The notes below the pieces were generated by a model that was not told the DNA's origin, did no database searches, and saw only the letters and a list, made by a program, of their open reading frames with translations. A stretch of DNA of 53,844 nt. Origin: a virus. Its lineage: Duplodnaviria > Caudoviricetes. Shown here piece by piece: positions 2,104-51,153 of this stretch (its first letter is position 1; each line of letters starts with the position of its first letter). The position numbers and the translations under genes are program-made. The stretch lies in IMG/VR virus record IMGVR_UViG_3300032092_000043, positions 1 through 53,844 of that record; one strand, 5' to 3'.

Positions 2104-3417
2104 ATGGGTCAATTTAAACCAATGGTCAAAATGGAGACCACTGAGCCTTCAGTTGAACTGAAGCTCAAAAAAGGCGGCAAAGTGGCCAAAATGGTCAAAA
2201 AGGCTGACGGTGGCATGATGGGTTCGCCCATGAGCGCTGCTGGCGCTATGCCCCCTGCAATGCCTGCCCGTGGCGGCATGCCAATGGCTGGCTCACCAAT
2301 GAAGCCTTCGCTGGCCATGCGTCGTCGCGCCATGAAGGGCATGCCCGCTGGTGCTGGCCCTGCTGGTCCAATTGGCGGTGCAGCTTCAATGCAGACCTCA
2401 ATGCCTATGGCCCCTCCCACCATGAAAAAAGGCGGCAAGGCCGACATGGGCCAAGACAAGGCCATGATCAAAAAGGCCTTCAAGCAGCACGATATGCAAG
2501 AGCACAAGGGCGGCAAAGGCACTTCGCTCAAGCTCAAGCACGGTGGCAAGATGGCCGCTGGCGGTGGGATGCACATGATGCCTGACGGCAAAATGATGAA
2601 GAACTCTGCCATGAAGAGCGGCGGCAAGATGACCAAGGGCGGCATGGCTTGCGCAACTGGCGGCGTAGTCAACGGCCAAGGCGGCTTTGCTACTGGCGGT
2701 GTCGTTAAGGGCCAAGGCGGCTACGCCACTGGTGGCGTTACCAAGTCAAACGGTGGCGGCTACAAAGAAGGCGGCATGACCATGGTCGAAAAGGGCGGGA
2801 AGATGGTTCCTGACTTTGCGGCTGATGGCAAGGGCAAAATGAAAAAAGGCGGCAAGATCAAAGGCATGATGGGCGGCGGAATGATGGACGAAGGCATGAT
2901 GGGTGACGCCATGTACAAAAAAGGCGGTTCCACAAAAAAAGCCTACGCGGCGGGCGGGACTGTTAATTCAGGCCGTCCCGTCGCGATGCCCCAAGGCGCT
3001 AAAAAGCCATCACAGCCCGTAAGAACCAACCTTGTTGTTGGCACTTTCAAAAAGGGTGGCAAGGTCACCCCTGCTGAAGGTAATTTGATGAAGGCATTTG
3101 GGTCTGAGAACAAGACTGCTATGAAGCAGGCAAAGGCTCAATCCAACGATGTCTACAGCAAGTACCAGAAGATGAAAGATGGTGGTTCTCCAACTCCAGA
3201 TGAGCGTTTCTTTGACAAAAACAAAGAAGACCCAAAATCTGCAAGCGACAAAGCAAGTCGTGAGTTGGAAGATGCGATGAACCCCTTGAGTATGGTGAAG
3301 GAACTGGCTGGAAAGGCCAAGAAATACTTCATGCCCAAGGCTGACAGTGTGACCAAGACTAAGGAGTCTGTAACGGTTACACCAGCGGGTAAAAAGCGCG
3401 GCGGAATGGCTTGTTAA
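2104..3417 (+). CDS. Low-complexity K/M/G-rich protein with many xxKGG/xAxGG repeats; probable capsid-internal protein
   Basis: AAGGAG RBS before ATG 2104; repeated MKKGG, YATGG, FATGG, YKEGG; ends KRGGMAC. Confidence 0.75.
   Translation: MGQFKPMVKMETTEPSVELKLKKGGKVAKMVKKADGGMMGSPMSAAGAMPPAMPARGGMPMAGSPMKPSLAMRRRAMKGMPAGAGPAGPIGGAASMQTSMPMAPPTMKKGGKADMGQDKAMIKKAFKQHDMQEHKGGKGTSLKLKHGGKMAAGGGMHMMPDGKMMKNSAMKSGGKMTKGGMACATGGVVNGQGGFATGGVVKGQGGYATGGVTKSNGGGYKEGGMTMVEKGGKMVPDFAADGKGKMKKGGKIKGMMGGGMMDEGMMGDAMYKKGGSTKKAYAAGGTVNSGRPVAMPQGAKKPSQPVRTNLVVGTFKKGGKVTPAEGNLMKAFGSENKTAMKQAKAQSNDVYSKYQKMKDGGSPTPDERFFDKNKEDPKSASDKASRELEDAMNPLSMVKELAGKAKKYFMPKADSVTKTKESVTVTPAGKKRGGMAC
2921..2985 (+). other. 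Putative programmed -1 ribosomal frameshift signal
   Basis: In-frame A_AAA_AAA (2934-2940), 5-nt spacer, GC-rich stem 2946-2957/2973-2985; -1 frame reads SLRGGRDC-TAA. Confidence 0.7.
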
Positions 3418-3422
3418 AAACG

Positions 3423-3448
3423 AGTGGGGGCTTCGGCCCCTGCTTTTT
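3423..3448 (+). terminator. Rho-independent terminator
   Basis: GGGGC-TTCG-GCCCC hairpin with T-tract. Confidence 0.88.
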
Positions 3449-3462
3449 ATTAAGGGAACAAA

Positions 3463-3873: not shown

Positions 3874-4315
3874 ATCTTCTTCCCAGCATCGTTTAATGGC
3901 GGCAGTTGCGCATAACCCTGACTTTGCCAAAAAGACGGGCATACCTTCTAAGGTTGGCAAGGAATTTGTCAAGGAAGATGCAAAGATGGCGGGTGGTGGT
4001 TTGTATGCAAACATTGCCGCGAAGAAGCAACGTATAGCCTCTGGCTCTGGCGAGAAAATGCGTAGTGCTGGTAGCAAGGGCGCTCCCAAATCTAGCGATT
4101 TTGCCAATGCGGCTAAGACTGCCTCTTACAAAGAGGGCGGCAAGTCAACGGTCAACGCCGCAGGCAACTACACCAAGCCAGAGTTGCGCAAACGTATTTT
4201 CAATGATGTGAAGTCTGAGGCTACTGCTGGAACGGGTGCTGGACAGTGGTCAGCCCGCAAAGCACAGGTTGTGGCAAAGCGTTATAAAGACGCAGGTGGT
4301 GGTTATCGTGATTAA
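3863..4315 (+). CDS. Small basic protein with internal GG motifs
   Basis: K/R/A/G-rich; MAGGG and YKEGG separate short modules. Confidence 0.65.
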   Translation: MPTKSSSQHRLMAAVAHNPDFAKKTGIPSKVGKEFVKEDAKMAGGGLYANIAAKKQRIASGSGEKMRSAGSKGAPKSSDFANAAKTASYKEGGKSTVNAAGNYTKPELRKRIFNDVKSEATAGTGAGQWSARKAQVVAKRYKDAGGGYRD

Positions 4316-4547
4316 AAAGCCCCAGCAATCATTGAAGGCTTGGGGCGACCAAAAATGGAGAACGAAAAGTGGTAAAAAATCTTCTGAAACTGGTGAAAGA
4401 TATCTTCCAGAGTCTGCAATTAAGAGCCTTAGCCCTGCTGAGTATGCTGCGACGACCAAAGCAAAAAGAGCAGGCAAAGCCGCAGGAAAACAATTTGTAG
4501 CGCAACCCAAAAAGATTGCGCAAAAAACAGCTAAACACAGGTTTTAA
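4308..4547 (+). CDS. Small basic protein
   Basis: Likely GTG start at 4308 (MIKKPQQSLKAW...), overlapping the previous gene; highly basic. Confidence 0.6.
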   Translation: MIKKPQQSLKAWGDQKWRTKSGKKSSETGERYLPESAIKSLSPAEYAATTKAKRAGKAAGKQFVAQPKKIAQKTAKHRF

Positions 4548-4549
4548 TT

Positions 4550-4804
4550 ATGGCAAAAAAGACTCCCTCTCTTGCTATTGGTCGTGGTGAAAAGTTGCCT
4601 GCTTCTAAGGGGGCAGGGTTGACGGCTAAAGGTCGAGCCAAATATAACGCGGCAACAGGTAGCAATTTGAAAGCACCTCAGCCTCAAGGTGGCGCACGCA
4701 AGGATTCTTTTTGCGCTCGTATGAGCGGTGTGCCGGGGCCGATGAAAGACGAAAAAGGCAAGCCAACCCGTAAGGCGGCGGCGCTTGCGCGTTGGAAGTG
4801 CTGA
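4550..4804 (+). CDS. Small basic protein ending in WKC
   Basis: 84 aa; SFCARM...ARWKC pattern common in phage head-region genes. Confidence 0.65.
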   Translation: MAKKTPSLAIGRGEKLPASKGAGLTAKGRAKYNAATGSNLKAPQPQGGARKDSFCARMSGVPGPMKDEKGKPTRKAAALARWKC

Positions 4805-4805
4805 C

Positions 4806-5867
4806 ATGTCATATTCTGGTACTACAGGCACAACCGTTGTAACGGTCCAAACGCTGATTGATCACGGTGCTCGTCGCTGCGGTAAGTTGGCAGAAGAGCT
4901 GACCTCGGAGCAGGTCCTGAGTGCCCGCGAGTCGTTGTTTTTCCTCCTGTCCAACCTGATCAACATTGGCATTCAGTATTGGGCTATCAGCAAGAAGGTC
5001 TACGGCTTCACGGCAGACAAAGCAACGTACCTGCTGCCCCTTGGCGGCAACGACGTGCTCAATGCGTTGTACCGTTATATGAACCGCCCTGACGGCAGCT
5101 ACACATCATCCGCAGGCGGCACAGTGGCCAATCTGTACGATGGTGATGTAGACACGGTATGCACTCAAACCTCTGCAAATGGAAATTTTGCTATCAACTT
5201 TGGCCCGTCCAACCCCATTTTTATTGGCTCAATTGGGTTCCTGCCTGCCTCCAGCGGCACTAAATCATTCATCCTCGAATACTCGCTTGACAACGTGACT
5301 TGGGCAACCTTGGTTGATCTTGGGTCCATCGCCGTGGTCGATAACGAGTGGGTTTGGACCGACATTGCCAACGGCCAGACCGTGCCGTACTACCGCATCC
5401 GCGCCTATAGTGGGACCACCCTGAGCTTGCGAGAATTGTATTTTGGCAACAACAGCACAGAGATCACCATGTCGCGCCTAAACCGCGATGACTACACCAA
5501 CCTACCCAACAAGAACTTCACAGCCAATCAGCCGTTCCAGTTTTGGTTCAATCGCACGATTCCCCAGAGCGAGATCGTGCTTTGGCCAACGCCGCAAGAC
5601 GCCTTTTATCAAATGACCATTTGGTACTCACGCCAGATCATGGACGTGGGTGACCTGTATGGCGAGCTAGAGGTCCCTCAGCGCTGGTACGAGGCTGTGG
5701 TGATGATGTTGTCTCATAGGATGAGCCTTGAGCTGCCCGGGGTGGACGTTACGCGCACCCAGTACCTTGAAGGTCAAGCTGACAAATACCTTGCCATGGC
5801 CGAAGAGGAAGAGCGCGACAAGTCGCCCATCTACTTTGCTCCAAACATCTCCGTTTACACGAGGTGA
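4806..5867 (+). CDS. Head-tail connector/adaptor-like protein with inserted beta-sandwich
   Basis: Helical N- and C-terminal segments (ARESLFFLL, VPQRWYEAVV) flank an FILEYSLDNVTW...YYRIR module resembling F5/8-type domains. Confidence 0.55.
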   Translation: MSYSGTTGTTVVTVQTLIDHGARRCGKLAEELTSEQVLSARESLFFLLSNLINIGIQYWAISKKVYGFTADKATYLLPLGGNDVLNALYRYMNRPDGSYTSSAGGTVANLYDGDVDTVCTQTSANGNFAINFGPSNPIFIGSIGFLPASSGTKSFILEYSLDNVTWATLVDLGSIAVVDNEWVWTDIANGQTVPYYRIRAYSGTTLSLRELYFGNNSTEITMSRLNRDDYTNLPNKNFTANQPFQFWFNRTIPQSEIVLWPTPQDAFYQMTIWYSRQIMDVGDLYGELEVPQRWYEAVVMMLSHRMSLELPGVDVTRTQYLEGQADKYLAMAEEEERDKSPIYFAPNISVYTR

Positions 5868-5870
5868 TTG

Positions 5871-6233
5871 ATGGCCATTTTTCTGGACACCCTTGGATAC
5901 TCTGACATTGCAATTGCGATATGCGACCGCTGCAAGATGAAGCGCCCGCACGCCGTGATGCGCAATGATCCGAACTTCCCCGGTCTCCGCGTCTGCAACG
6001 AAGGCTGTGCAGATGAGCTTGACCCCTACCGTTTACCTGCTCGCAAAACCGAAAGGATAACGATTCGGTTTCCACGTCCTGACCTCCCCCTGAACGCAGG
6101 CGACAACTATTTGGTCAGTGGCGGCATCACTACCGTTGTACAAATTTCGACACAAGGCAACACCCAGACGCCAACCTCAAACGGAAACTTGGACACTATT
6201 GCCCCGAACCCACCAAACAACACGAGCACCTAA
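5871..6233 (+). CDS. Hypothetical protein with CxxC...CxxxC motif
   Basis: ICDRC and VCNEGC. Confidence 0.6.
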   Translation: MAIFLDTLGYSDIAIAICDRCKMKRPHAVMRNDPNFPGLRVCNEGCADELDPYRLPARKTERITIRFPRPDLPLNAGDNYLVSGGITTVVQISTQGNTQTPTSNGNLDTIAPNPPNNTST

Positions 6234-17841: not shown

Positions 17842-18091
17842 CCCTGCACAGATTTATGACCCACGCTATCACACGTTTGAGTCGTGGGCGTGCCTTATGT
17901 GCGAGCTTTATGGTGCGCAGAATTTGCAAATCCCAAATGCTCAAACAAATTGGAAAGATTGGGGCAACGGACTTAACGCGATTGACGTCTTCTCAAATGA
18001 GGCAACGCCCCGCACGGACCAATTCAATAATTGGTATGAGTGGGCCGAGGCCATGGTGGCGGCAGTTAATCCAGCGACGCAAACAACATGA
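17831..18091 (+). CDS. Hypothetical protein
   Basis: 86 aa W-rich ORF overlapping both neighbours. Confidence 0.65.
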   Translation: MALNPAQIYDPRYHTFESWACLMCELYGAQNLQIPNAQTNWKDWGNGLNAIDVFSNEATPRTDQFNNWYEWAEAMVAAVNPATQTT

Positions 18092-19255: not shown

Positions 19256-22200
19256 ATGGGTTTTGTTTCTGACGTTGTTAGCGGGATTGGCAATGCCGTC
19301 GTTGGCGTAGTCACTGGTGTTGTTGACCTTGCTGGTGACGTTATCAAAGGCGTAGGCGATGCTGTTACTGGCGTTTTAAAAATAGTTGAAAATACTGTCA
19401 CGGGCATTCTTAAAGACCCGCTTCCAACCCTCTTGCAAATTGGCGGCGCAATGGTGGGCATTCCGCCATATGTGACGGCTGCTGTGATTACAGCGTCAAA
19501 AGGTGGAAAGCTTGAAGACATTGCCAAATCTGCTGCTGTTTCTTACATAGCTTCTGAGGCCCTTGCCAGCACCAACATTGGCAAAGAAATTGGCAAATTT
19601 ACCAAGACTTCTGGAAGCGATTTCACCAACTACATGATGGAGAATTACAGCCTTCCAGCAGACGTTGCTGTGTCCGTTGCAAAGGCTGCGACTGCAAGTT
19701 TGAACTCTTCAATTATTGGTGGCTTGAATGCAGCAATCAGCGGCAAGTCAATTACCAGCGGTATGGCAACAGGCTTTACGTCTGGTCTTATTTACTCGTC
19801 AACAAACAGCTATTTTGACTCTTTAAACAAGGACCCAAATTGGGGCTTTAGCAACAAAGCTCTAGACCTAATGAAGGGTTCTGCAAGCACCGTTTTAAAC
19901 ACAATTGTTTCAGGCAAAGGTGACCCCTCACAAGCACTCGGGAACTACATTGCCTACGCCACAATTAACTTGGCTGGAACAACGCTTGCGCAGACTGCAA
20001 AGGATGCCTACAAGGTCTTTACGACTGACACCGAGGCGGCAAAGCTTGCTCAGGACAAGTACGTCACGGCCAAGGCCGAGTACGACACAAAAATCACTGC
20101 TGGAGAAAAGCTGCGCAATGAAATAAACGATGAGGCTAAAGCTTTTGAGACTAAAGTTGCCGATGAATTTACACCGTTCAAAACAAGCTACGACGCAATA
20201 ATTGCAGCAAACGAAGCGGCGGTTAATTCATTCAATTGGGAAAAGTCGCGCTTTGACGAAAACAAGTGGGCTTACGAAAATTACCAAACCAAAATGGCGC
20301 AGGACGGCTATCAAATTTACGACGAGGACGTGGGTAATTATTACAGAATGGTTCCAGTCACGGATAAAGATGGTCAAGTTGAATACCATTTACAGTTTGC
20401 GCCAACCAAGCAGTCATATGCCGACAACGCAAACGCCGCAGCCGTAGTGGCAAATGCCGCTGCGGAAAAAGCGGATTTAACTTCCAAAGAAGCTCAAGCG
20501 CTGTACGACGCCAACAAGGACATGCTTGATACGTTGGGAACAACCAAAACTGCAATTGACGAAAAAATTGCCAAGCTCAATGTCATCAAAAGCGATGTTG
20601 AGGACCCAACCGTTGAAGGCTCTACGGCAGCAGCGTTAAAGGCCGCCTCCACCGCCTATCAAACAAAATACGACGCTTGGTCCAAAACCAAAGACGCCGC
20701 TGACCGCTCTGCTGAGAACTACACCAAGGCCTTGGCTGAAGTGGCCACACGCGACGCAACCATTGACGCATTGAACACTGGGGCAATTACCGTTTCCAGC
20801 AAAGACACAAGCGGCAATTGGCTGTTGTCTAACGGCATGACGCTGACGTCGCAAGGTAAGTTCATGCAGGACGGCGCTCAGGTGTTTACAGCCGCCGCTG
20901 GCATTCCTCAAAAGGTCATGGATTTCAAAGCCTCTGACGGCTCCAATGTTGACTTCAATGAAAACTCTGGCCGTCTGCTCTCAGAGACTGACGTAGAAAA
21001 TATTTGCAGACGTGACTATGGCTTCACGCCAACGGCAGCAGAGATTGAGGCAATTGCTGGCGGAACGTACAACGCGCTTGGCAACGACGACATGACCAAT
21101 TTGGCCAACAAAAAGGCCAGAGAGACCTACTTTGCTGTTGTTGGAAAAGATCCGACCGCGTCTGAGCTTGAGACAATTCGCAAGACGGGCAAGGTAATTG
21201 ATGGTGCGGCTGACGCCGCCATCAACGGTCTAGACTTGCCTGCGGACTATGTCTTCCCTGACATGTCAACGCCAGAAAAAATCTCTCGTGGCCAAGCCTA
21301 CGCCGCAGCAAGGGCAAAGTACGGACCAAAAGCAATTTTTGAGTGGACTGACCCTGACACTTTGGTGACAAAAAAATACACCACAGAAAACAGGGAAGAA
21401 AAAGCTGCACGACTTGCAAAGGCCGCGCAAGATGCGCAGAACCGTATCAACCTCATGCCATCTAACGACGTTGCTGGCGCAGGTCGCGGCTTCTTGGGCG
21501 GCAAGCCCGCTGGAGCTGAAAACATCTACCTTGGCAAGAAAGACAACAATGTCTACGTTGATACTCGCGAATACGACGCATTAGGTAACGTGACTAGCGG
21601 CTCTTTAGGCCTTGCTGACGACAAGACCGCAACCAACGTCCGCGCAACAAGCATTGTTGGGCAGATGATTGCTACGGGCGCACAGGGTTTTGGTGAGCTG
21701 ATGCAAAGCTACGCAAGCGGCGCAGCCCTTGCTTCAGGCGGCGACATGAGCAACGCAACCTACAACTTAGGCAAGGCGCTTGAGACTTGGGGCAAAGACC
21801 GCGACGGCGCGGACGTTGTCAGTCAATCCAAAAACATGGAAAGCGCAATTGAGCGGGCAGGTAAAGAGGGCAACATTTTTACGCAGATTGGCATACTGAC
21901 CAAGGCCGCAAAAGACAACCCTTTGGGCATGATTTCAGCCATGGGCAAAGAAGTCGTGCAAGAAGGCCCGGGGTGGGCCGTCGGTGCTGTAGCTGCCGCA
22001 GGCCTTTTGGCCGTCGGTGGTGGGGTTGCTGCGGCTGCCTTGACCGCTGCTGGCGTGGCCGCCGCCATGGACGGCATTGAGTCGTTTGGTGCAGGTGGTC
22101 GCGAGGCCTACGACGCCTTGAAAAAGGCTAATGTGCCCGAGGACCTCGCTCGCGAAAAAGCAATTGTTAACGGCGCAATTCACGCCGCCGTTACCGCGCC

Positions 22201-25200
22201 AGCCGAATTCCTTGCGGACAAGACTTTGTTCAAAGCCTACCTCAACAGCGTCAGTGGTGGCGTTAAAGAGTATGCAGCTAAGTACGGCTCAACAATTGCC
22301 ACAAACGCGGCGAGTGAGTTTATTGAGGCCGTGCCTCAGAACCTGTCAACTCAACAAATTACCACTGGCAAGATGGACCTCAAGACGGCCACTGCTGGCG
22401 CTTTTTACGAGAGCATGATTGGTGGCGGAACAGCCACCTTGGTGCTTGGCCCAGCAGCCATCAACGACGCAGTAATAGTTGCAAAAGATTACGCTGGTAA
22501 CAACGTAACCCTTAAAGAGTTCATGGACGGCACTCGTGACGTCAATCTAAACACCTTGGATTCCTCTGCAACCATTGGAACCTCAAACAACGGCGGCACA
22601 GTGACGCTTGGCGCATTGACTGCTGTCGGCACGGACATTGGTCTTTCTAACACCGAGCTAAAGACCTTCCTGCCAGCCAGCGTAACCGATTACAGCTCTG
22701 TGGTTTACAAATCGGCTGACGGCACTGCGGTGACCCTTGGCAACATCGACTCCATTGTCAAGAAAAACCCAACGCTGGACTTTACGACCGTGCTGGACAC
22801 CGTCTACACCACCAGCGCGGCAGACTTTAAGGTCGTCTTTAGCCCAACCGTTTTGAACGGCACAGCAGACCTCAAGCCTGCAACCGATTACGAAACAACG
22901 GCCAAGGCCGCAGGCTTTCCAAGCTACGCCGTTTACCAGCAGTACGGTGGCGACATATCGGCCTACAACAACGCTCAGAACACTAACTTGGCTACTGCGG
23001 CTGGCTTCCCTGATTACGCTGCGTACACTAAATTCAATGGCGATTTGGCTGCTTACACGGCGTCAAAGACAACACCACCCGTCGTAACCCCTCCCGTTGT
23101 TACACCCCCAGTTGTCACGCCTCCTGTCGTTACTCCGCCTGTTGTGACCCCTCCAGTGGTTACACCCCCCGTAGTGACGCCGCCTGTAGTTACGCCGCCC
23201 GTGGTCACGCCCCCTGTGGTAACGCCTCCAGTTGTAACTCCACCCGTTGTAACGCCGCCTGCAACCGACGTGACAATGGACGCCGTTACCAAGGCCATCA
23301 ATGACGCAATTGCTGGCATTCAGTTGCCCGCAGGCGTCAGCATGGACTCTGTGGTCACGGCCATCAAGAATTTTGCCGCTCAGAACCCAACGCTCAATGC
23401 TGCTGACGTAACGACGGCAATTGCTGCATACATGAAGAGCAACCCGCCAGTCAGCATGGCTGACGTGAGTACGGCGATGGCCACGGCCACAAAAGGCTTG
23501 GCCACAAAGGCTGACATTGCCACAGCAATTGCGGGCATCAAGTTGCCAGCAGGTATCACTACCGCTGACGTCACGTCTGCCATTGAAACTTACATGTCCA
23601 AGAACGCTGGTCTTAGCGCCAAGGACGTGACGGCTGCTGTCAAGACCTACATGGACAACAACCCCGGCCTTGCGGCTGCGGACATCAAGGCCACAGTTGA
23701 AGCGGCAACCAAAGACTTTGCAACTAAGAAAGACATTGAAACCGCGATTGCTGGTATCAAGTTTCCTACAGGAATTACGGCGGCTGACGTCTCTGCTCAA
23801 ATCACGGCAGCTCTTAAAGCAAATCCCAACTTGACTGCGGCGGACGTCACCAAGGCGATCACGACGTACATGCAGAACAACCCCGGCGTGTCGGCTGCGG
23901 ATGTTTCAACTGCAATTAACGCAGCAACTAAAGATTTGGTCACCAACGCATCAATGACAACGGCATTGGCTGGCGTTACTGCTGACGTTAAAACCAAGTT
24001 TGATGGCCTTACTCAAGGTCAAAAAGATATTGTTGCTGCTCAGGTAAAAATGGGCACGGACCTTAACACGGCCATCACCAACGCAGCCGCGCAAACTGCA
24101 ACTCAAATTGCAGGCGTCAAAACCGACATCAGTAATTTGTCCGCTGACGTCAAGATTAAATTTGATGGTCTCACTCAGGGCCAGAAAGACATCGTTGATG
24201 CACAAGTCAAGATGGGTGTCGACATCAACAAAGCAATTGATAACGCGACCAAGCAGACGAGTGAGCAGATCACCAACGTCAGGACCGACCTGACAAGAGA
24301 CATCAAAGACGTTCAAACGCAGTTCAACACTCGCGTAGACGAGCTGGTGCTGCAAGGTAAAACGTACCAAGAAGCCACGCAAGAGGCTTTGAAAGAGCTT
24401 GGCACTGGCGTAAGTGGTTTGCAGACCAGCGTTACTGATATACAAGAAAAAGCAAAACAAGCCGCAAAAGTCGAAGCTGCAAAAACCAAACAGGCCAACG
24501 TTAACAGTGGACTGAGCAGGGCCATGTCGTTGATTGCGCCAACCCTTGGGGCTGGCTTAGTGGACACCTCAAGCCCCGGCTTTGCAGATATTGGTTTAAA
24601 AACCACAGGCGAAGCAAAATTTGAAGGGCCGCTTGAGCAATACCTCAAGATGGTCAAAGAAGGCGATTACACGCCAAACCCAACCCAGCCAGAAACTCAA
24701 CAACAGAACCAGCAGGTGGCCCAAGTGCAAGACGAACTTTCAACCCCACAGCCTCAACCCCAGCAAGGGTCTGATTATTTCAACTACGGGCAGCAGACCG
24801 ACATCAATGACTTTCTGGGTGGCGGTCAAACTCCGACGCTTCCGTTTAAAGCTGGTGGCCTTGCGACGCCTTTGTTTGCGGGTGGCGGCACAACCCGCTA
24901 TGGCCACTACGCTGGGGGTGGCTTGAATGTGGTTCACCACTCTGGCAAGCCACGGCTGGACTTCCGCACAGGCAACGCTGTCACGGGACCCGGGGACGGG
25001 CAGTCCGATGACATCCCCGCCATGTTGGCCGATGGGGAGTTTGTTTTCCCTGCTGACGTGGTGGCCGCGCTTGGAAATGGCTCAACCAAGGCTGGAAGCG
25101 ATAAACTCTACGACATGATGCACTCTATTCGGGCGTATCACAGGTCGGCAAAACCAAAAGATTTACCGCCACCCGCAAAAAAATCACCTTTGGATTACCT

Positions 25201-25231
25201 GACAAAAACTGCACGCAAGGCTAGGAGATAA
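19256..25231 (+). CDS. Large internal virion (ejection) protein
   Basis: 1991 aa, Ala-rich helical, hydrophobic stretches, tandem repeats, C-terminal GPGDGQSDDIPAMLADGEFV domain. Confidence 0.7.
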   Translation: MGFVSDVVSGIGNAVVGVVTGVVDLAGDVIKGVGDAVTGVLKIVENTVTGILKDPLPTLLQIGGAMVGIPPYVTAAVITASKGGKLEDIAKSAAVSYIASEALASTNIGKEIGKFTKTSGSDFTNYMMENYSLPADVAVSVAKAATASLNSSIIGGLNAAISGKSITSGMATGFTSGLIYSSTNSYFDSLNKDPNWGFSNKALDLMKGSASTVLNTIVSGKGDPSQALGNYIAYATINLAGTTLAQTAKDAYKVFTTDTEAAKLAQDKYVTAKAEYDTKITAGEKLRNEINDEAKAFETKVADEFTPFKTSYDAIIAANEAAVNSFNWEKSRFDENKWAYENYQTKMAQDGYQIYDEDVGNYYRMVPVTDKDGQVEYHLQFAPTKQSYADNANAAAVVANAAAEKADLTSKEAQALYDANKDMLDTLGTTKTAIDEKIAKLNVIKSDVEDPTVEGSTAAALKAASTAYQTKYDAWSKTKDAADRSAENYTKALAEVATRDATIDALNTGAITVSSKDTSGNWLLSNGMTLTSQGKFMQDGAQVFTAAAGIPQKVMDFKASDGSNVDFNENSGRLLSETDVENICRRDYGFTPTAAEIEAIAGGTYNALGNDDMTNLANKKARETYFAVVGKDPTASELETIRKTGKVIDGAADAAINGLDLPADYVFPDMSTPEKISRGQAYAAARAKYGPKAIFEWTDPDTLVTKKYTTENREEKAARLAKAAQDAQNRINLMPSNDVAGAGRGFLGGKPAGAENIYLGKKDNNVYVDTREYDALGNVTSGSLGLADDKTATNVRATSIVGQMIATGAQGFGELMQSYASGAALASGGDMSNATYNLGKALETWGKDRDGADVVSQSKNMESAIERAGKEGNIFTQIGILTKAAKDNPLGMISAMGKEVVQEGPGWAVGAVAAAGLLAVGGGVAAAALTAAGVAAAMDGIESFGAGGREAYDALKKANVPEDLAREKAIVNGAIHAAVTAPAEFLADKTLFKAYLNSVSGGVKEYAAKYGSTIATNAASEFIEAVPQNLSTQQITTGKMDLKTATAGAFYESMIGGGTATLVLGPAAINDAVIVAKDYAGNNVTLKEFMDGTRDVNLNTLDSSATIGTSNNGGTVTLGALTAVGTDIGLSNTELKTFLPASVTDYSSVVYKSADGTAVTLGNIDSIVKKNPTLDFTTVLDTVYTTSAADFKVVFSPTVLNGTADLKPATDYETTAKAAGFPSYAVYQQYGGDISAYNNAQNTNLATAAGFPDYAAYTKFNGDLAAYTASKTTPPVVTPPVVTPPVVTPPVVTPPVVTPPVVTPPVVTPPVVTPPVVTPPVVTPPVVTPPVVTPPATDVTMDAVTKAINDAIAGIQLPAGVSMDSVVTAIKNFAAQNPTLNAADVTTAIAAYMKSNPPVSMADVSTAMATATKGLATKADIATAIAGIKLPAGITTADVTSAIETYMSKNAGLSAKDVTAAVKTYMDNNPGLAAADIKATVEAATKDFATKKDIETAIAGIKFPTGITAADVSAQITAALKANPNLTAADVTKAITTYMQNNPGVSAADVSTAINAATKDLVTNASMTTALAGVTADVKTKFDGLTQGQKDIVAAQVKMGTDLNTAITNAAAQTATQIAGVKTDISNLSADVKIKFDGLTQGQKDIVDAQVKMGVDINKAIDNATKQTSEQITNVRTDLTRDIKDVQTQFNTRVDELVLQGKTYQEATQEALKELGTGVSGLQTSVTDIQEKAKQAAKVEAAKTKQANVNSGLSRAMSLIAPTLGAGLVDTSSPGFADIGLKTTGEAKFEGPLEQYLKMVKEGDYTPNPTQPETQQQNQQVAQVQDELSTPQPQPQQGSDYFNYGQQTDINDFLGGGQTPTLPFKAGGLATPLFAGGGTTRYGHYAGGGLNVVHHSGKPRLDFRTGNAVTGPGDGQSDDIPAMLADGEFVFPADVVAALGNGSTKAGSDKLYDMMHSIRAYHRSAKPKDLPPPAKKSPLDYLTKTARKARR
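23072..23260 (+). repeat. 12 x TPPVV coding tandem repeat (15-bp unit)
   Basis: Counted directly; identical peptide units with differing codons. Confidence 0.95.
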
Positions 25232-42789: not shown

Positions 42790-43392
42790 ATGCCAGAAAC
42801 CGCCGCAAAGCCATCAAAACGAGCTACAGCAGCCCCAAAGCCCAAAGCTAAGGCCAAGGGAGCTGCCACGCCGCGCAAAGCCCTAGAAGCCCCAAAGAAG
42901 ACAAGCAAGTCAACCTACACCAAGCAGATAGCTGACATCATCTGTATACGGCTATCAGAGGGTGAGAGCTTGAAGGAGATCGTAAGGTCAGAGGGGATGC
43001 CAGATAGGGCGACGGTTTATCGTTGGTTGTTGGAGCAGCCTGTTTTCTGCGACATGTACACACGCGCACGAGAAGAGCAGGCCGACACGCTGGCCGACGA
43101 AATCATTGCAATTGCTGATGAGTCCCCTGCGATCAACGAGTTCCGCGACAAGCACGGCGACGTGATAGACATCAAGATCGACTCTGGATATGTGGCCTAC
43201 CAAAAGCAGCGCATTGAGGCCCGCAAGTGGACGGCCATGAAGCTTAAGCCTAGGAAGTACGGCGACAAGCTCGAGCTGGCTGGCGACCCCAACAACCCCA
43301 TGAAAGTCGAGATCCAGTCCGAGGCTGACACCTACCTTGCGGCCCTCTTAAAGAACATAGAGCTAAATAAGCAGGTCGCCGCGAATGAGTGA
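42790..43392 (+). CDS. terS: Terminase small subunit (Sf6/P22-like)
   Basis: ICIRLSEGESL..I...MP...TVYRW, RAREEQAD, RIEARKW..KL.PRKYG. Confidence 0.88.
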   Translation: MPETAAKPSKRATAAPKPKAKAKGAATPRKALEAPKKTSKSTYTKQIADIICIRLSEGESLKEIVRSEGMPDRATVYRWLLEQPVFCDMYTRAREEQADTLADEIIAIADESPAINEFRDKHGDVIDIKIDSGYVAYQKQRIEARKWTAMKLKPRKYGDKLELAGDPNNPMKVEIQSEADTYLAALLKNIELNKQVAANE

Positions 43393-44803: not shown

Positions 44804-44975
44804 CCAACCCGCCAAGATAGAGATGTGCGCCAACCGCTTTGAGTTGATAAGCTCATGGGGTGAGCCTGTCGACAAGGCGTGGGCGCGTGACATGTTCGAG
44901 CGCTGGCTAAATCAACGGGTGGACTTGACAGATGCCAGCGTTTATGATGACTTAATTCCAGCAAAAGGTAAATAA
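44793..44975 (+). CDS. Small hypothetical protein
   Basis: 60 aa ORF filling gap between terL and next gene. Confidence 0.4.
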   Translation: MQSDQPAKIEMCANRFELISSWGEPVDKAWARDMFERWLNQRVDLTDASVYDDLIPAKGK

Positions 44976-44977
44976 GC

Positions 44978-47900
44978 ATGCCCAGCTACATAAATTCCAT
45001 CAAGCCGATTAAGCAAATTGATTTACCAAAGCTAAAGCTAATTGAAACCGATTCGGTTCCAAAGAAGAGCCAGTCCCTCCGAGAGTGGGCCATGGCTGGT
45101 GGTGGCGTCCCTGAATCGCACAAGGACCGGGCCGACGTCTGGCACAAGAAGGCGCACAACTACGCCAAGGGCGGCGCGGTCAATATGCAAAAGGGCGGCA
45201 AGATGGGTGTGGGCATGAAGATTGCCGACGTTGTAGCCGACGCCAGCAAGCAGGCTGACGAGATCCTTGCAGCCAAGAAGGCTGGCAAGCTGGACGATGC
45301 CATGAAGTCCAAGCAAGCGCCCATGACGACGCCCCAAGGCACTGGCCTGCCGTTGATGCCCCGCACCCAAGGCATGTACACCCAAGGCGTCAAGCAAGAG
45401 GACCTGCCCCGCATGACCAAGGTGGATAAGGCCCGCGCCGAGGGTAAGTCGCCTGCATACACCGAGCGCATGCAGGACCTGCTCGACAGCCCCACCGCCC
45501 GCAAGAAGATCGACAAGCTGATCAACAAGGGCAAAGACCTGAACATGACCGAGTGGTACGGCACTGAGCCTTTGCGTCAGGTGGCCATGGACTTGGGCCT
45601 GTCGCCCGAGAAATACAAAGAATTCCTTGCGCAGATGGCCAGTGCCAGTCAGCGCAACCCGGTGGACCAGCAAAACAAGATGGGCAGCTACCTGTGGTAC
45701 TTGAGCCAGACGGACCAGTTGCCCGATGATGCGTTTCTGCTGACCAACAAGATCAAGAAGGACCCGTCGCTCAGGCCCGAGGGCACGGCCATTGAACTGC
45801 CAGAAGGCTACGGCTCGCTGGCGCAGGGTGACATCTTTAAACGTGGCAAGCAGATCGCATCGGGTGACATCATGGGCGCACTGCCCCCAGACAAGAAGCT
45901 GGGCACGTTCTACCGCAACTACCTCGGCAACCTCAAGCCCGTCACGGTGGACGTCAACGCAGTGCGTGGCCCCATCATCGAGCGCGGCGATCCCCGCTGG
46001 CTGTCGTCTAAGCTGGTCGAGAAGGACGACGAGGGCAACGTGATTGCCACCCACTTCCCCCGCAAGGACGTGGCCGAGGGCCGCATGTCGCTGAAGGAGG
46101 CCAAAGAGCGCCCCGGCTTCTGGGAGGCTGCGCCGTCTGGGTCCGAGTACGCAGGCTTTGAGGACCTGTGGCAACGCGGGGCCAAGCGCCACGGCGTTGA
46201 GCCAGCAGAGGCCCAAGCGCTGGGCTGGTATGGCTCTGCTGACGTCACCGCGCTCAAGACCAAGCCTGAGCTGTACATCGACAACCTCGAGCGCATGATC
46301 AAGCGCACCGCCGAGGAGACGGGCCAAAGCCCGCTCAAGGTGATGGAGGAGGTCATCAGGGGCAAGGGCTACCTGTACAAAGAGGGTGGAGCGGTCCAGC
46401 ACTTTGATGGTGGCGGTATGGCAGCCGCAGACTTCGTTGGGGCAGAAGACGACGGCGGCAGCCTTGACAAGGCCAAGCTGATGACCAAGATCCTTGCGGA
46501 CATGGCCAAGAAGCAGGGAAGCCAAGAGGTGGACAGCTTAAAAAAGCCCCGCGCACTCACGGACCTGCTTAACCGTGGAGTGCTGGCAAACAACCCAATA
46601 AGCGCAGGCGTGGATCTTTTTAACATGGGCCTTGGTGCATTTGGCATGGGCAGCGATAAGCCGTTTCTTGGGTCCGAGCACCTCAAGGGCTTGATGGACA
46701 AATACAACATTACGTCTGGCGAAGAACGCCCAATGATGGAGACCGCGTTGAGCTTTGCAAGCCCCGCAGGTATGGTCAAAGGTGCGGTGAAAGCAACAGA
46801 CGCCGCTAAGAAAGCTCCTGAGTTGGTCAAAAAAGCCTCGGATGCTTTAACTTCAAGTAAGATAATTCCTCTGGCCACAGAGGCGAAGACTGCGCAAGCA
46901 GGGAAACCAACAGGAGCTGCATATGCAACAAGACAAGAAGGGCCGTTCTTCCGAGTCAGCCCAACAACACTTAACGTCAGTACGGCAAAGAGTCGCGGAA
47001 TTAGAGAAGCGGATGAACTTCAAGGCCAAGCCCCTGTCGGAGGAACAACAGGACAGGTTGGAGGCGAACTTCCGACGCGCATCGCAGATGAAGAGGTGGC
47101 CCGAATAATCGCTGACCCAGTCGCGAACGAGCCACTAAACATTGCAAAAAGATATACTCAAGAAACGCAAGGCACTGACTTTGTCTTGCCTGAAATCCCC
47201 GAGAGTTCCTTAGTTAAGCAGTCGGCCATTGGCCGCACGCACCAAATCGCCGTCGAGGGTGCGCCTGAATACAAGACAGCGGTCTTCGATGCTTACGTTA
47301 AGCAGATGCCCGAAGTGCTTGAGCAGGCAGGAGCTAAGAACTACGACGACCTTATGGAGAAGGCTTACCGCCAACTTGCAAAGGAAACCGACGCGCAGTT
47401 CCAAGCACTGCCCTACAACTTCTCGTATCACCGCGCTGGTGAGGGCAACTACAACTCCAGCAAGGAGATGGCCGCCGACGTGCATGGCAACAAGCACCTG
47501 TACGTCTTTCAAGGCGGCGACCCCCACGACTTCCTGAACCGCGTTGACCCAAACACTGGCTTAAACGAGAACGAAAAGTTTCGCGCCGTTCACGATTTGC
47601 TTGGCCACGCCATCTACGGTAACCAATTTGGACCAAAGGGCGAAGAGACCGCGTGGGCCATCCACAGCCAGATGTACAGCCCGCTTGCTCGTTTGGCCAT
47701 GACGGCTGAGACTCGCGGCCAAAACTCAATGGTCAACTACAGCCCACTAAACGCAAACCTCAAGGCTGAGATTGCCAAGTACGACAGTATGGCCGACGAG
47801 GCACGCAGAAGGGGCGACAAGGCCCTTTTAGGCGAGATTAACGCAGCCAAGCGCCAAGCGTACTCAGGGTTCCAATATGCGCCCCAGAAGGCTGTATTGT

Positions 47901-48454
47901 TGCCCCCCGAGTTCTTGAGTCCCCAATACGCTGGCGGCATGCCCTCGTACCTTGCGGCAGCAAACCGACCCACAAAGGGAACCGAAACCCAATCGGTTTT
48001 AACGCACTTTAGCAACGACCCCAATTTGCAGTTCACTGATCCACGCAGGTATGGCAGCGGCATCAAGGGGGCGGAGGGTGAGCGCCTGCGCGAGTACCCC
48101 GGCGCAGTACGCGACCGCTCGTACTTCTACCTCGGGGAGCCGAGTATGGTCACGCCCGAACCCGGCCTCGGTGCAAATCGTTACCGTGGCGAGTCGTCCA
48201 GCCTGTACGACATCACGCAAGACCCCTTGAACTTTCGCGCCCTTGCGCGAGAGTCTAATCGCGTACCGTACACCGCCAAGTACAACCAAGGCGTGACCTA
48301 CCCATTGCAAGAAGCCAACGACATGGAGCGTTTGGTCAAAGAGTATGGCTATGAAGGGATGGCCAATCCAAAGGCTTCCAAACCAATGGCCATCATGTTC
48401 AAAGAGACACCAGTCCAACGCCAAAAGCGCGGCGGACTTTCATCGATAAAGTGA
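44978..48454 (+). CDS. Multidomain (polyvalent-like) protein with GG-motif linkers
   Basis: Three globular regions (VTVDVNAVR..QALGW; FRAVHDLLGH..ETRGQNS; THFS..YFY..GYEG) with xxxGG motifs at the N-terminus, after domain 1 and at the C-terminus. Confidence 0.7.
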   Translation: MPSYINSIKPIKQIDLPKLKLIETDSVPKKSQSLREWAMAGGGVPESHKDRADVWHKKAHNYAKGGAVNMQKGGKMGVGMKIADVVADASKQADEILAAKKAGKLDDAMKSKQAPMTTPQGTGLPLMPRTQGMYTQGVKQEDLPRMTKVDKARAEGKSPAYTERMQDLLDSPTARKKIDKLINKGKDLNMTEWYGTEPLRQVAMDLGLSPEKYKEFLAQMASASQRNPVDQQNKMGSYLWYLSQTDQLPDDAFLLTNKIKKDPSLRPEGTAIELPEGYGSLAQGDIFKRGKQIASGDIMGALPPDKKLGTFYRNYLGNLKPVTVDVNAVRGPIIERGDPRWLSSKLVEKDDEGNVIATHFPRKDVAEGRMSLKEAKERPGFWEAAPSGSEYAGFEDLWQRGAKRHGVEPAEAQALGWYGSADVTALKTKPELYIDNLERMIKRTAEETGQSPLKVMEEVIRGKGYLYKEGGAVQHFDGGGMAAADFVGAEDDGGSLDKAKLMTKILADMAKKQGSQEVDSLKKPRALTDLLNRGVLANNPISAGVDLFNMGLGAFGMGSDKPFLGSEHLKGLMDKYNITSGEERPMMETALSFASPAGMVKGAVKATDAAKKAPELVKKASDALTSSKIIPLATEAKTAQAGKPTGAAYATRQEGPFFRVSPTTLNVSTAKSRGIREADELQGQAPVGGTTGQVGGELPTRIADEEVARIIADPVANEPLNIAKRYTQETQGTDFVLPEIPESSLVKQSAIGRTHQIAVEGAPEYKTAVFDAYVKQMPEVLEQAGAKNYDDLMEKAYRQLAKETDAQFQALPYNFSYHRAGEGNYNSSKEMAADVHGNKHLYVFQGGDPHDFLNRVDPNTGLNENEKFRAVHDLLGHAIYGNQFGPKGEETAWAIHSQMYSPLARLAMTAETRGQNSMVNYSPLNANLKAEIAKYDSMADEARRRGDKALLGEINAAKRQAYSGFQYAPQKAVLLPPEFLSPQYAGGMPSYLAAANRPTKGTETQSVLTHFSNDPNLQFTDPRRYGSGIKGAEGERLREYPGAVRDRSYFYLGEPSMVTPEPGLGANRYRGESSSLYDITQDPLNFRALARESNRVPYTAKYNQGVTYPLQEANDMERLVKEYGYEGMANPKASKPMAIMFKETPVQRQKRGGLSSIK

Positions 48455-48461
48455 GCACCCC

Positions 48462-51014
48462 ATGGCAACCCAATTCCCAATAGACCCAGAATTCAACCGC
48501 TTTGTTGGCGGCAACCCTGACCAAGACACTGAAGCTGGGGGCGAAGAGGAGGCGCAGGTTGTTGACATGCCTGACCTAGTCAACTCCGAGCTGGAAGAGC
48601 TGCCCGACGGCAGCGTGGTTGTCACCATGGACACCAAGGGGCCGATGGAGGACGAGGACTTCTACCAAAACTTGGCTGACAGCGACCTGATTCAGGACTA
48701 CGACCTGAGCGCCATGGCCCTGCGCTACATCGAGCTGGTCGAGAAGGATAAGGACGCACGCAAGCAGCGCGACAAACAGTACGAAGAGGGCATCAAGCGC
48801 ACGGGCATGGGCAATGACGCCCCCGGGGGTGCGAACTTCAACGGCGCATCCAAGGTCGTTCACCCCGTAATGGCTGAGACTTGCATCGACTTTGCAGCCC
48901 GCGCCATCAAAGAGATGTTCCCACCCGACGGCCCGACCAAAACCAAGATCTTGGGCGACGTCACGCAGGACAAAACCGACATTGCCGAGCGCAAGCGCGA
49001 TTACATGAACTGGCAGTTGACCGAGCAGATTGAGGAATTCCGCGACGAGCAAGAGCAAATGCTGACCCAGCTCCCACTTGGTGGCTCACAGTACATGAAG
49101 CTCTGGTACGACGAGAAGAAGCGCCGCCCCTGCGCACAGTTTCTACCCATCGACAACGTGCTTTTGCCCTACGCGGCAGGCAACTTCTACACCGCCGAGC
49201 GTTTCACCGAGGTTGACGATATCTCTGACTGGGATTACAAGCGCCGCGTGAACTCTGGCATGTACCGCGACACCGTAATGTCCCGCGCCACCATGGACCC
49301 AGAGATGACTGGGGCGCAGAAGGCCACAAACAAGGTCGAGGGCAAGTCCCAAAACGACAACGAAGACGCCGTGCGCCGCGTCTACCACATCTACACATGG
49401 CTCGAGCTGGAAGACGACCCCGTCACTAAGGGTGAAATGGCCCCGTACATCCTGATGATCGACGATCTGTCAAGCGAAGTGATTGGCCTGTACCGAAATT
49501 GGGAAGAGGGCGACAACACAATGACCAAATTGGACTGGGTCATCGAGTTCAAGTTCATCCCATGGCGTGGCGCATACGCAGTTGGTCTGCCGCAGCTCAT
49601 TGGAGGCCTCTCAGCGGCCCTCACAGGCTCTTTGCGTGCCTTGCTGGACTCTGCGCACATCAACAACGCTGCAACGCTCCTGAAGCTCAAGGGCGGCAAG
49701 ATCTCTGGCCAGTCCCAAGAGATCGAAGTCACGCAGGTTGTGGAGATTGAAGGCGCTCCCGGCGTGGATGATGTGCGCAAGATCGCCATGCCCATGCCTT
49801 TCAACGGCCCGTCGCCCGTTCTTTTCCAGCTTTTGGGCTGGCTGACCACCGCCGCCAAGGGCGTGGTGACCACCGCAGAGGAAAAGATTGCCGACGTCAA
49901 CAGCAACACCCCAGTTGGCACGACTCAGGCGCTGATCGAGCAGGGTGCAGCGGTTTTCAGCTCTATCCACGCTCGTTTGCACGAGTCTCAGGGCCGCGTG
50001 CTCAAGGTTTTGAGCCGAATTAACCGCTGGTACTTGGATGACATGCAGCGCGGTGAGGTTGTCGAGGATTTGGAGGTCACTCGAGAGGATTTTGCCCGTG
50101 TGACCGACGTGATTCCTGTGTCGGACCCGCACATCTTCTCTGAGACCCAGCGGATGGCGCAGACCCAAGCGGTTATGGCCATCATGAAGGACAACCCAGA
50201 CCTGTTTAACAAGAAAGTGGTGATACAGCGCTTTTTGAAACAGATCAAAGTCCCCGGCATCAACGAAATCATGGTCGACGTGCCCGCTCCAGTGAAGATG
50301 GACGCCGCCAACGAGAACGTAGCCATGGCCATCGGTCAGGCCGCCTACGCTTACCCCGAGCAGGACCACCTTGGCCACATTCAAGCGCACTTGGACTTTG
50401 CAAAGAGTCCGATTTTTGGTGGTAACCCCATCATTGCGCCAGCCTACTTGCCCAAGTCGGTCGAGCACATCAAGCAGCACATCGTTTTGTGGTACTTAAA
50501 CCGCATGACTGGCTACGTCCAAAAGGCCATGGGCGAGAAGCTCGAGGACTACGAGTTGCAAAAGGACCCCAAGGCCGTCGACAAGCTGTTTGCGCTGGCA
50601 TCGCAGCACGTCGAGCTGGACGCGGACCAAACGCTCAAGGGCATCTTGCCTGTGATCGAGCAACTGATGCAGGGCCTGCAAAAGTTCAAGCCGCAGCCAC
50701 AGATGACGCCAGACACCAAGGTGCTGCTGGACACCAGCATGGCCGAGACCCAGCGCCGCGCCAAGCGCGACGAGGCAGAGATGGGTCTCAAGGACAAAGC
50801 ACTGGCCGCCAAGATCCAAATGGACATGGCCAAGCTGCAACAGGACCAGCAGGAGGCAATGGAAGAGCTGGAAATGCGCTTGGCCATTGCAACCAGCGAC
50901 CAAGAGATGAAAGAACGCATCGAGACAGCCCGCTTAACACGCGATGCGGCAAAGCTCAATTTCGAGCAAACCAAGGCTGTACCAACCCAAGGAGACCGTT
51001 ATGGCAACCAGTGA
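48462..51014 (+). CDS. Portal protein (P22-like podovirus)
   Basis: 850 aa downstream of terL; VVHPVMAE, PVGTTQALIE, IPVSDP; coiled-coil C-terminus. Confidence 0.88.
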   Translation: MATQFPIDPEFNRFVGGNPDQDTEAGGEEEAQVVDMPDLVNSELEELPDGSVVVTMDTKGPMEDEDFYQNLADSDLIQDYDLSAMALRYIELVEKDKDARKQRDKQYEEGIKRTGMGNDAPGGANFNGASKVVHPVMAETCIDFAARAIKEMFPPDGPTKTKILGDVTQDKTDIAERKRDYMNWQLTEQIEEFRDEQEQMLTQLPLGGSQYMKLWYDEKKRRPCAQFLPIDNVLLPYAAGNFYTAERFTEVDDISDWDYKRRVNSGMYRDTVMSRATMDPEMTGAQKATNKVEGKSQNDNEDAVRRVYHIYTWLELEDDPVTKGEMAPYILMIDDLSSEVIGLYRNWEEGDNTMTKLDWVIEFKFIPWRGAYAVGLPQLIGGLSAALTGSLRALLDSAHINNAATLLKLKGGKISGQSQEIEVTQVVEIEGAPGVDDVRKIAMPMPFNGPSPVLFQLLGWLTTAAKGVVTTAEEKIADVNSNTPVGTTQALIEQGAAVFSSIHARLHESQGRVLKVLSRINRWYLDDMQRGEVVEDLEVTREDFARVTDVIPVSDPHIFSETQRMAQTQAVMAIMKDNPDLFNKKVVIQRFLKQIKVPGINEIMVDVPAPVKMDAANENVAMAIGQAAYAYPEQDHLGHIQAHLDFAKSPIFGGNPIIAPAYLPKSVEHIKQHIVLWYLNRMTGYVQKAMGEKLEDYELQKDPKAVDKLFALASQHVELDADQTLKGILPVIEQLMQGLQKFKPQPQMTPDTKVLLDTSMAETQRRAKRDEAEMGLKDKALAAKIQMDMAKLQQDQQEAMEELEMRLAIATSDQEMKERIETARLTRDAAKLNFEQTKAVPTQGDRYGNQ

Positions 51015-51153
51015 TCAAGAGCAAAAGAGCATCAATGTGCCCCAGCACAAGCGCATGGCAATGGGCGAAAAGCTCGATGGCCAGAGCATGAAGGGTGGCA
51101 GTCCCGCTCCAACCAAACAGTCAGGAGGCTTGTCACAAGCTAAGAAAAAATGA
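51001..51153 (+). CDS. 50-aa basic peptide with GG motifs
   Basis: AAGGAG RBS; VPQHKRMAMG, MKGG, SGGLSQAKKK. Confidence 0.6.
   Translation: MATSDQEQKSINVPQHKRMAMGEKLDGQSMKGGSPAPTKQSGGLSQAKKK

Follow-up and report, generated by a model that had tools for sequence, protein, structure and literature searches.

A conserved glycine-pair peptide at module junctions of cargo, ejection and small head proteins of an uncultured tailed phage

The IMG/VR record IMGVR_UViG_3300032092_000043 comprises a complete phage genome of 53,844 bases, bounded by terminal repeats of 127 bases, and this whole stretch is referred to here as the window. Five of its late proteins carry a short peptide built around glycine pairs: a polyvalent cargo protein, a Lys/Gly/Met-rich disordered protein, a fusion of three small basic modules, an ejection protein, and a 50-residue peptide (Table 1). 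The original prediction, made from the sequence alone, had described a genome-wide tag of the form [MFYL]xxGG, and all the peptides that it quoted are present where it placed them. What [MFYL]xxGG detects is the core of a single conserved peptide, which has a short form, [Y/F/M/K]-[A/K]-x-G-G-x-[V/I], and a full form, here called the junction peptide, [Y/F/K]-A-x-G-G-E-V-H-M-x-x-G-G. In cargo proteins the motif is usually doubled.

Table 1. Features of the window that bear on the junction peptide; aa, amino acids.
Feature	Position	Strand	Remarks
Polyvalent cargo protein, 1158 aa	44978..48454	+	between large terminase and portal
Conserved leader core EWAMAGGGVP, residues 36-45 of the cargo protein	45083..45112	+	alignment A6
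Double-GG junction 1, YAKGGAVNMQKGG, residues 62-74 of the cargo protein (YAKGG..MQKGG)	45161..45199	+	
Double-GG junction 2, YKEGGAVQHFDGGG, residues 467-480 of the cargo protein (YKEGG..FDGGG)	46376..46417	+	after module C
C-terminal tail of the cargo protein, KRGGLSSIK	48425..48451	+	
Ejection protein, 1991 aa, with tape-measure-like C-terminal module	19256..25231	+	
Motif cluster of the ejection protein, LPFKAGGLATPLFAGGGTTRYGHYAGGGLN, residues 1862-1891	24839..24928	+	before last domain
Conserved last domain of the ejection protein, GPGDGQSDDIPAMLADGEFVFPADVVAALGNGSTKAGS	24986..25228	+	nearly invariant in alignment A8
Lys/Gly/Met-rich disordered protein, 437 aa	2104..3417	+	15 copies of [FYMLKR][AK]xGG; end KRGGMAC
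Fusion of three small basic modules, 150 aa	3863..4315	+	three separate PHROG families
Stand-alone DUF6321 small module, 84 aa	4550..4804	+	Pfam DUF6321, E=2.3e-22
Basic 50-aa peptide directly after portal gene	51001..51153	+	MKGG; end SGGLSQAKKK
Small terminase and large terminase	start 42790 and 43385		head module
Portal protein, 850 aa	48462..51014	+	PHROG portal family
Major capsid protein	129-1043		order runs on across record ends

The number of motifs was compared with a chance expectation in which the residues are shuffled within each protein (2000 shuffles per protein, 1000 for the grouped test). For [MFYL]xxGG, the Lys/Gly/Met-rich protein (counted as 2053-3417) has 15 copies where 2.2 are expected, the 150-aa fusion 2 where 0.21 are expected, the ejection protein 10 (1.97 expected), and the cargo protein 5 (1.78 expected). 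Other glycine-rich structural proteins are without such enrichment. For example, the protein at 6233-8437 has a single copy with 1.7 expected, and those at 14132-15628 and 15628-17841 have none with 1.4 and 1.6 expected. When proteins are grouped, the five tagged proteins have 32 copies (6.5 expected); the counts are 11 (13.8 expected) in 31 other late proteins and 1 (3.3 expected) in 31 early proteins. The separation is sharper for the refined motif used for further counts, [FYMLKR][AK]xGG: 25 against 2.9 in the five tagged proteins, 1 against 2.7 in the other late proteins, and 0 against 0.9 in the early ones. The five proteins were chosen after the data had been seen, so the p-values are inflated, yet the contrast is still large. 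Thus, in the five tagged proteins the motif occurs far more often than chance allows and more often than glycine content predicts, since the within-protein shuffles keep composition, and early proteins are free of clusters, as originally noticed for replication genes. The term genome-wide was overstated. The enrichment of late over early proteins holds for the five tagged proteins and fails for the 31 other late ones, and the motif is not found in the linkers of other large multidomain late proteins of the window.

The cargo protein is composed of a leader, a junction, module C, a second junction, a linker segment, module B, and a tail. A scan of IMG/VR anchored on the portal gene kept 80 related loci, of which 44 encode a homologue of the cargo protein that is 470–2266 aa long and 28–94% identical; across these loci the capsid protein is 88–100% identical. 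Among 19 representative modules of the relatives, Pfam recognizes ART-PolyVal (53.6 bits, cut-off 31.2, in locus L047), LPD23 (about 40 bits in L011 and L017), and PcfJ (in L047 and L017), and 12 of the 19 modules have no Pfam match. The cargo protein of the window itself matches only DUF7178 (28 bits, cut-off 27) and phrog_3170, and is tied to its relatives via the leader and modules B and C. The position of its gene between large terminase and portal suggests that the product is packaged in the virion and delivered into the host. Module B contains a conserved stretch, ..FRAVHDxxGHAxxGNxFGPKGEE.. (window 47588-47608), which we take to resemble the H-D signature known from phosphohydrolases of the HD-domain type. 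PDB sequences gave no match, and the weak Pfam match to DUF7178 lies elsewhere in the protein. A profile of cargo alignment A5, in which the module C part is visibly misaligned, likewise had no match among PDB sequences.

The modules of the cargo proteins are flanked by a conserved leader and a short tail. The leader has the consensus QSLxEWAMAGGGVPxxxKxRxxVWHxK in alignment A6, where Q32, W37, A40, G41-43, V44, P45, and W55 are at least 90% conserved; the MAGGG quoted in the original prediction corresponds to residues 39-43. A regular expression for the leader is matched by 26 of 43 distinct cargo proteins, and a tblastn search with the leader against named phages gave no match. A glycine pair lies no more than 22 residues from the C-terminus in 34 of the 43, regardless of which module comes last. 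Six of the 43 cargo proteins end in C-x-C-[HD]-[DN], for example LCGCHD.

Between the ends, the junction peptide separates modules that are shuffled as units. A consensus from 60 distinct units begins with Y (35%), K (18%), or F (17%), followed by A (67%) or K (22%), any residue, the first glycine pair, E (50%), V (78%), H (57%), M (72%), any two residues, and the second glycine pair. The four glycines are given by the search expression itself; the information content is about 3 bits at each of V, H, and M and 0.4–1.1 bits in the flanks. When the 43 distinct cargo proteins are split at these units, 120 segments of at least 40 aa are obtained, which fall into 17 recurring families and 19 singletons. 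The modules are permuted in order and vary in number: the window has C~B, L066 has B~C, L077 has E~B~A~C, and L067 has E~A~D~B. Of 2396 internal ends of BLAST alignments, 19.2% fall no more than 10 residues from a unit, compared with 2.8% of random points; after repeats are collapsed, the figures are 11.5% and 2.8%. The low-complexity filter of BLAST was on and could favour alignment ends near glycine runs. The module families and alignment ends, together with the small-module fusions described below, bear out the proposal that the motif sits at module boundaries.

The codons indicate that selection is on the peptide and not on the DNA, because the junction codons vary synonymously. The junction glycines are encoded by a mixture of GGC and GGT. 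GGA-GGN accounts for 3% of 71 first and 6% of 70 second junction glycine pairs, and for 8% of 611 other glycine pairs. A scan of IMG/VR for DNA encoding GG-E-V-H-M-xx-GG gave 109 stretches. In the 80 loci taken from them, each of the 81 matches to this DNA pattern is read in frame and belongs to an open frame of 250 aa or more.

In the ejection protein, the motifs FKAGG, FAGGG, and YAGGG cluster at residues 1864-1889, just before the last domain, and the first glycine pair of the cluster is invariant in 41 relatives (KxGGLATPLMAxGG). Over its last 150 residues, the protein shares homology with the C-terminal region of tape measure proteins from siphoviruses. By tblastn, the A-x-G-G ... G-E-F-V region matches annotated tape measure proteins in 40 phage records, including those of Sasha-like, Arthrobacter, and Nitrincola phages, and among PDB sequences the end of the protein matches Douge gp16 (8zdo, E=5.6e-5) and the tape measure protein of 8rk3. 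At E<=0.001, 16,752 representative proteins match a profile built from the end module, and among the best 150 listed nearly all have the match at the C-terminal end. In lambda, Sasha, T5, and the window alike, the A-x-G-G..G-E-F-V stretch is covered by no Pfam family; Tape_meas_lam_C matches upstream of this stretch, and TMP_C is limited to the last 36 residues of the T5 protein. The ejection protein also contains a perfect tandem pentapeptide, TPPVV, repeated 12 times at residues 1273-1332 (window 23072-23251), for which the only Pfam match is Extensin-like and below threshold. A short distance upstream of the ejection protein, among structural genes, 18088-18771 encodes a 'predicted metal-dependent hydrolase' (Pfam PF10118, E=5e-36); in the nearest named relative this spot holds different genes.

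The remaining tagged proteins are small or disordered. The Lys/Gly/Met-rich protein belongs to a family of which 37 distinct members have 9–15 motifs each and contain 14–21% Gly, 11–16% Lys, and 6–12% Met. Its ends are conserved, with MGQFKPMVKM..LKLKKGGKV at the N-terminus and SVTKTKESVTVTPAKKRGGxVxC at the C-terminus; the conserved N-terminus places the start at 2104 and not at 2053. Members nearly always end in cysteine, ..KKRGGxVxC, and DUF6321 modules, free or fused, end in ..RWNCPGW or ..RWKC. These terminal cysteines, like those at the ends of some cargo proteins (window 3391-3417; loci L046-L049, L007, L018), could serve in metal binding or disulfide anchoring.

The 150-aa fusion matches separate PHROG families over residues 1-43, 43-88, and 89-149, and its joints are MAGGG (residues 42-46, nucleotides 3986-4000) and YKEGG (residues 89-93, nucleotides 4127-4141). 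Each of the three modules exists elsewhere as a free open reading frame (ORF) of about 50–60 aa, often in the head gene cluster, in pelagiphages, roseophages, cyanopodoviruses, and a Stenotrophomonas phage, and in none of 209 matching phage records does the match extend over 80% of the fused query. Close relatives mix six small modules in many combinations, and the joints are always [KMF][KAM]xGG(G). For example, DUF6321, which stands alone in the window, occurs in relatives both free, with the start MSKKxVSLA, and behind a GG junction, as KMKEGGPSLA. The 50-aa peptide is present in 66 of the 80 loci, and its ending GG(A)LSQ(A/T/V)KKK is kept in most.

The gene order runs from the large terminase through the 1158-aa cargo protein, the portal, the 50-aa peptide, and a 60-aa protein to a GroES-like protein, which is followed by a scaffold-like protein of 312 aa and two unassigned proteins (52697-53239 and 53262-53834). 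Across the record ends, the capsid gene is followed by the 437-aa protein, the 150-aa protein, tail genes, a lysis cassette, matches to SU10-type adaptors, and the 1991-aa ejection protein. The SU10-type adaptor matches suggest a short tail, and no tail tube or tail-assembly chaperone family is matched among the ORFs of the window in PHROG or Pfam. The replication and recombination genes occupy about 29.7–42.7 kb, and the recombination functions comprise an exonuclease family match and RusA (PHROG, Pfam). A near-identical DNA search with 42790-51153 found no match in named phages. The nearest named records by portal include the uncultured Manatee Spring phage (61% identical). The portals of Caulobacter phages RW, KcrB, RLK, and GB2A are 45% identical, and further named relatives are Roseobacter phages CRP-901/902 and Pelagibacter phages HTVC023P/027P. 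By gene position and homology, the view that the tagged proteins are internal or ejected proteins is supported.

Some neighbours of these genes deserve description in their own right. The GroES-like (Cpn10) protein of 145 aa, encoded at 51319-51756 between the portal and scaffold-like genes, occurs in 64 of the 80 related loci, and its matches are weak (Pfam, E=3.8e-6; PDB profile Cpn10, E=0.012). The SU10 adaptor family is matched by two proteins, 4785-5867 and 13500-14135, with fibre and lysis genes between them; one match is strong (E=8e-24) and one is weak (E=1.4e-4, below cut-off). The 180-aa head-module protein 52697-53239 has His60, Cys62, Cys108, and His129 invariant in 21 relatives and is a candidate for an unrecognised enzyme. 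Profiles of this protein and of 53262-53834 had no match among PDB sequences, and an Atlas search with the former returned unnamed viral clusters only.

Several peptidase systems are directed at glycine pairs: the C39 double-glycine leader peptidases, the adenain/ASFV-type enzymes of clan CE, and the JAB deubiquitinase-like enzymes. None of these families is found in the 67 ORFs of the window by Pfam and PHROG. The only peptidase family that these searches recognise there is of the M15 endolysin type, although remote homologues could escape them, and the absence of a recognisable prohead protease agrees with what had been noticed initially. Of the fused protease-capsid PHROG families, the capsid protein matches the capsid half alone. 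Among the 19 representative modules of cargo relatives, Pfam finds no peptidase family, and the zincin-like metallopeptidase domain is likewise not found in them or in the cargo protein of the window. No phage gene is recognisable as that of a cutter; if there is one, a host enzyme or self-cleavage would be responsible.

In T4, capsid targeting relies on an N-terminal signal that is removed by the prohead protease gp21 at Leu/Ile-x-Glu. The original prediction drew its analogy from here, from a short peptide that brings unrelated proteins into the head. The idea of one shared, selected peptide on specific late proteins stands, but the T4 analogy fits poorly: the motif of the window is internal or C-terminal, and no prohead protease family is found in the 67 ORFs. 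The tail and ejection proteins of T5, lambda, and T7 are the better experimental parallels.

As described for T5, the tape measure protein pb2 matures to pb2* and pb2C by a cut after R1127, and the particle retains the piece that is released (Linares et al. 2023, PMC10038345); an older title cited in that account refers to a part played by the host. The T5 record has AEGGMMYPGVSYQMGEHGTEVV (AEGGMMYPG) immediately after R1127, which puts the cut directly before A-x-G-G, at a place that corresponds in a five-way alignment to F|ATGG in lambda and Sasha. The T5 AEGG is followed by a G-E-x-x-x-E-V-V stretch, like the G-E-F-V core of the ejection protein of the window. In contrast to the window, T5 has a long tail, pb2 is a length ruler, and the motif is present in one copy. 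Lambda gpH contains FATGG (733-737), YATGG (778-782), and RDGGLF (843-848), and ends in RDGGLFSGGGR. It is processed to gpH* and gpHC by a cut in a glycine-rich region, the site and catalyst of which are called unknown in the published account, and its residues 818-849 bind the hub protein gpI (PMC12617516). The glycine-rich region of this siphovirus tail protein holds FATGG, and the cut may fall at the motif.

T7 offers a parallel among small proteins. T7 gp7.3 reads ..KKARAGG(83)KKSLSVARSSGGGINI (starts KKSLSV), and gp6.7 ends in SAFGGKK; both are small, basic, largely disordered, and ejected. A cryo-electron microscopy study from 2024 shows gp7.3 from residue 84 to residue 98 as an ordered loop that is held in the tail channel between two subunits of the nozzle, with K84 and K85 in contact with the end of the DNA; residues 1-83, which are basic, lie around the DNA without resolved structure (PMC11784390). 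The GG-KKSLSV stretch of gp7.3 and the GGKK end of gp6.7 are comparable to KRGG-LSSIK and SGG-LSQAKKK of the window, and the T7 proteins, unlike the window cargo, are not modular.

Further tape measure and ejection proteins extend the comparison. Douge gp16 (PDB 8zdo chain S, 1699 aa) has internal Y-A-x-G-G-F-L-S-G-x-G-T-G-R-S-D-S..G-E-F-I modules at 964-1004 and 1412-1449, and the two copies bracket about 400 residues in a cassette-like manner. Only the last 42 residues of the Douge tape measure are described as resolved. The cultured Caulobacter phage RW, which grows on C. vibrioides CB15 and whose portal relationship is given above, has the same head-gene order without a cargo gene between terminase and portal; its ejection protein gp066 keeps the motif as NMARGGYAVKGPGTGRSDSI..GEYV and ends in RYMDGGRV. 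The large terminase of RW is annotated in two pieces with an S-adenosylmethionine (SAM)-dependent methyltransferase gene between them (L281 2445-5247), which could be an inserted mobile element or a split gene. The available text of a study of the TP901-1 tape measure does not mention glycine or cleavage.

Polyvalent proteins are already known, and they are predicted to be packaged and injected (Iyer et al. 2017, PMC5512222). Like the window cargo, they are described there as large, fast-evolving, multi-module proteins encoded beside packaging genes. Unrelated domains in variable architectures, a mark of such proteins, are found in the 43 distinct cargo relatives with their 17 module families. 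The ART-PolyVal and LPD23 domains of some relatives are of kinds catalogued from polyvalent proteins. The same work proposes processing by zincin-like metallopeptidases as a common theme and not a strict requirement, and its main text contains neither 'glycine' nor 'linker'. The window differs from the polyvalent scheme in having a junction peptide common to cargo, tape-measure-like, and small head proteins. A narrow literature search, which did not extend to supplements that might hold cleavage-site data, found no description in print of the junction peptide.

Taken together, we tentatively favour the explanation that the motif is a hinge-strand-hinge connector, specific to proteins that the particle stores and releases via the portal and tail channel, a reading that we hold to be quite possible. 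The glycine pairs would give flexibility and act as hinges, and the few residues between or after them could form a short docking strand, as in the T7 loop. By fixing to the core or channel a chain that would otherwise be loose, this strand may aid loading and keep the cargo threadable; the portal is a candidate docking partner for tagged cargo. The edge before A-x-G-G may in addition be a place of cutting during assembly, as in T5. In the cargo protein, the connector would string together swappable enzyme modules, from the leader through the modules to the GG-LSSIK tail, and it would serve as well in the small basic head proteins, the disordered Lys/Gly/Met-rich protein, and the C-terminal module of the ejection protein. 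Such a connector would account for the restriction of the motif to five proteins, its C-terminal copies, the conserved V-H-M, and the ease with which modules are fused, split, and reordered. Either of the functions originally suggested for the motif, a cutting site or a loading and anchoring signal, could apply.

Several points weigh against the connector. For this phage, we infer virion location, docking, and cutting alike. The residue at the T5 cut is R, where the window family mostly has Y, F, K, or M. The resemblance to T7 extends over few residues and came to notice when the hypothesis already existed. In the structures described for T5, lambda, and Douge, the motif region is not resolved. 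The head module of RW has 1 motif in 14 proteins, and since RW also lacks the cargo gene, the tags are not needed to build such a head. AlphaFold2 models of the ejection-protein end module (mean predicted local distance difference test score, pLDDT, 51) and of the protein 52697-53239 (mean pLDDT 43) are of low confidence and uninformative.

A bolder form of the argument would make bulky residue-Ala-x-Gly-Gly-x-Val a near-universal mark of tail-ejected proteins, with one mechanism cutting gpH and pb2 and defining the loading and release of cargo. That single mechanism might be a host protease, or self-cleavage coupled to docking at the portal or tail channel, and the mark would cover tape measures, podovirus ejection proteins, and polyvalent cargo. 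We regard this generalization as doubtful.

The most serious competitor of the connector, albeit an unlikely one, is pure polyprotein processing, in which each junction is a site for one GG-directed protease that cuts free the cargo modules, the fusions, and the ejection protein. The cut of T5 pb2 directly before AEGG is what processing would produce, and lambda gpH is likewise cut in the glycine-rich region that holds FATGG. Fused and separate genes switch exactly at the junction in close relatives, as in DUF6321, and the module order is freely permuted. Nevertheless, the 67 ORFs contain no recognisable peptidase other than the M15 endolysin type, and the 19 modules of relatives contain none. 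Moreover, many motifs are 3–20 residues from a natural C-terminus, where a cut would free a mere stub, and the Lys/Gly/Met-rich protein would become at least 15 tiny peptides. In T7, the density beside the 84-98 loop of gp7.3 is assigned to residues 1-83, and cleavage is not reported in the available text (PMC11784390).

Somewhat less probable still is a passive joint, that is, a flexible linker kept alike as a recombination crossover point, with neither a partner nor a cutter. The clustering of alignment ends at the units and the swapping of modules as cassettes are what such a joint predicts, and the phage has the exonuclease family match and RusA. A linker, however, has no need of V-H-M conserved at about 3 bits each, and the glycine codons differ between copies, which makes DNA homology weaker as a cause. 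The motif is also present at C-termini, where nothing is joined, and in the unrelated phage groups lambda, T5, Sasha, Douge, and RW, whereas the linkers of the other large multidomain late proteins are without it. Finally, an artefact is highly improbable: the tagged proteins are fairly glycine-rich (8.5–18%) and G-G-x-V-x-M could spell the GGAGG, spacer, and ATG of a ribosome-binding site translated after gene fusion, but a composition artefact is ruled out by the within-protein shuffles (still 25 against 2.9) and a Shine-Dalgarno relic by junction codons that are GGC/GGT, with GGA-GGN at just 3–6%, below the 8% of other glycine pairs.

If the peptide is a handle for loading, threading, or cutting, it would explain how new enzyme modules, such as the ADP-ribosyltransferase-type modules carried by relatives of the window cargo, join the virion cargo without a redesign of the particle. 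It would also offer a candidate for the place and the manner of the cuts in lambda gpH and T5 pb2. The breadth of the phenomenon may be considerable, as the tape-measure-type end module alone is present in the 16,752 representative proteins noted above, and in uncultured phages the peptide could then be used as a simple sequence mark to predict which proteins are ejected.

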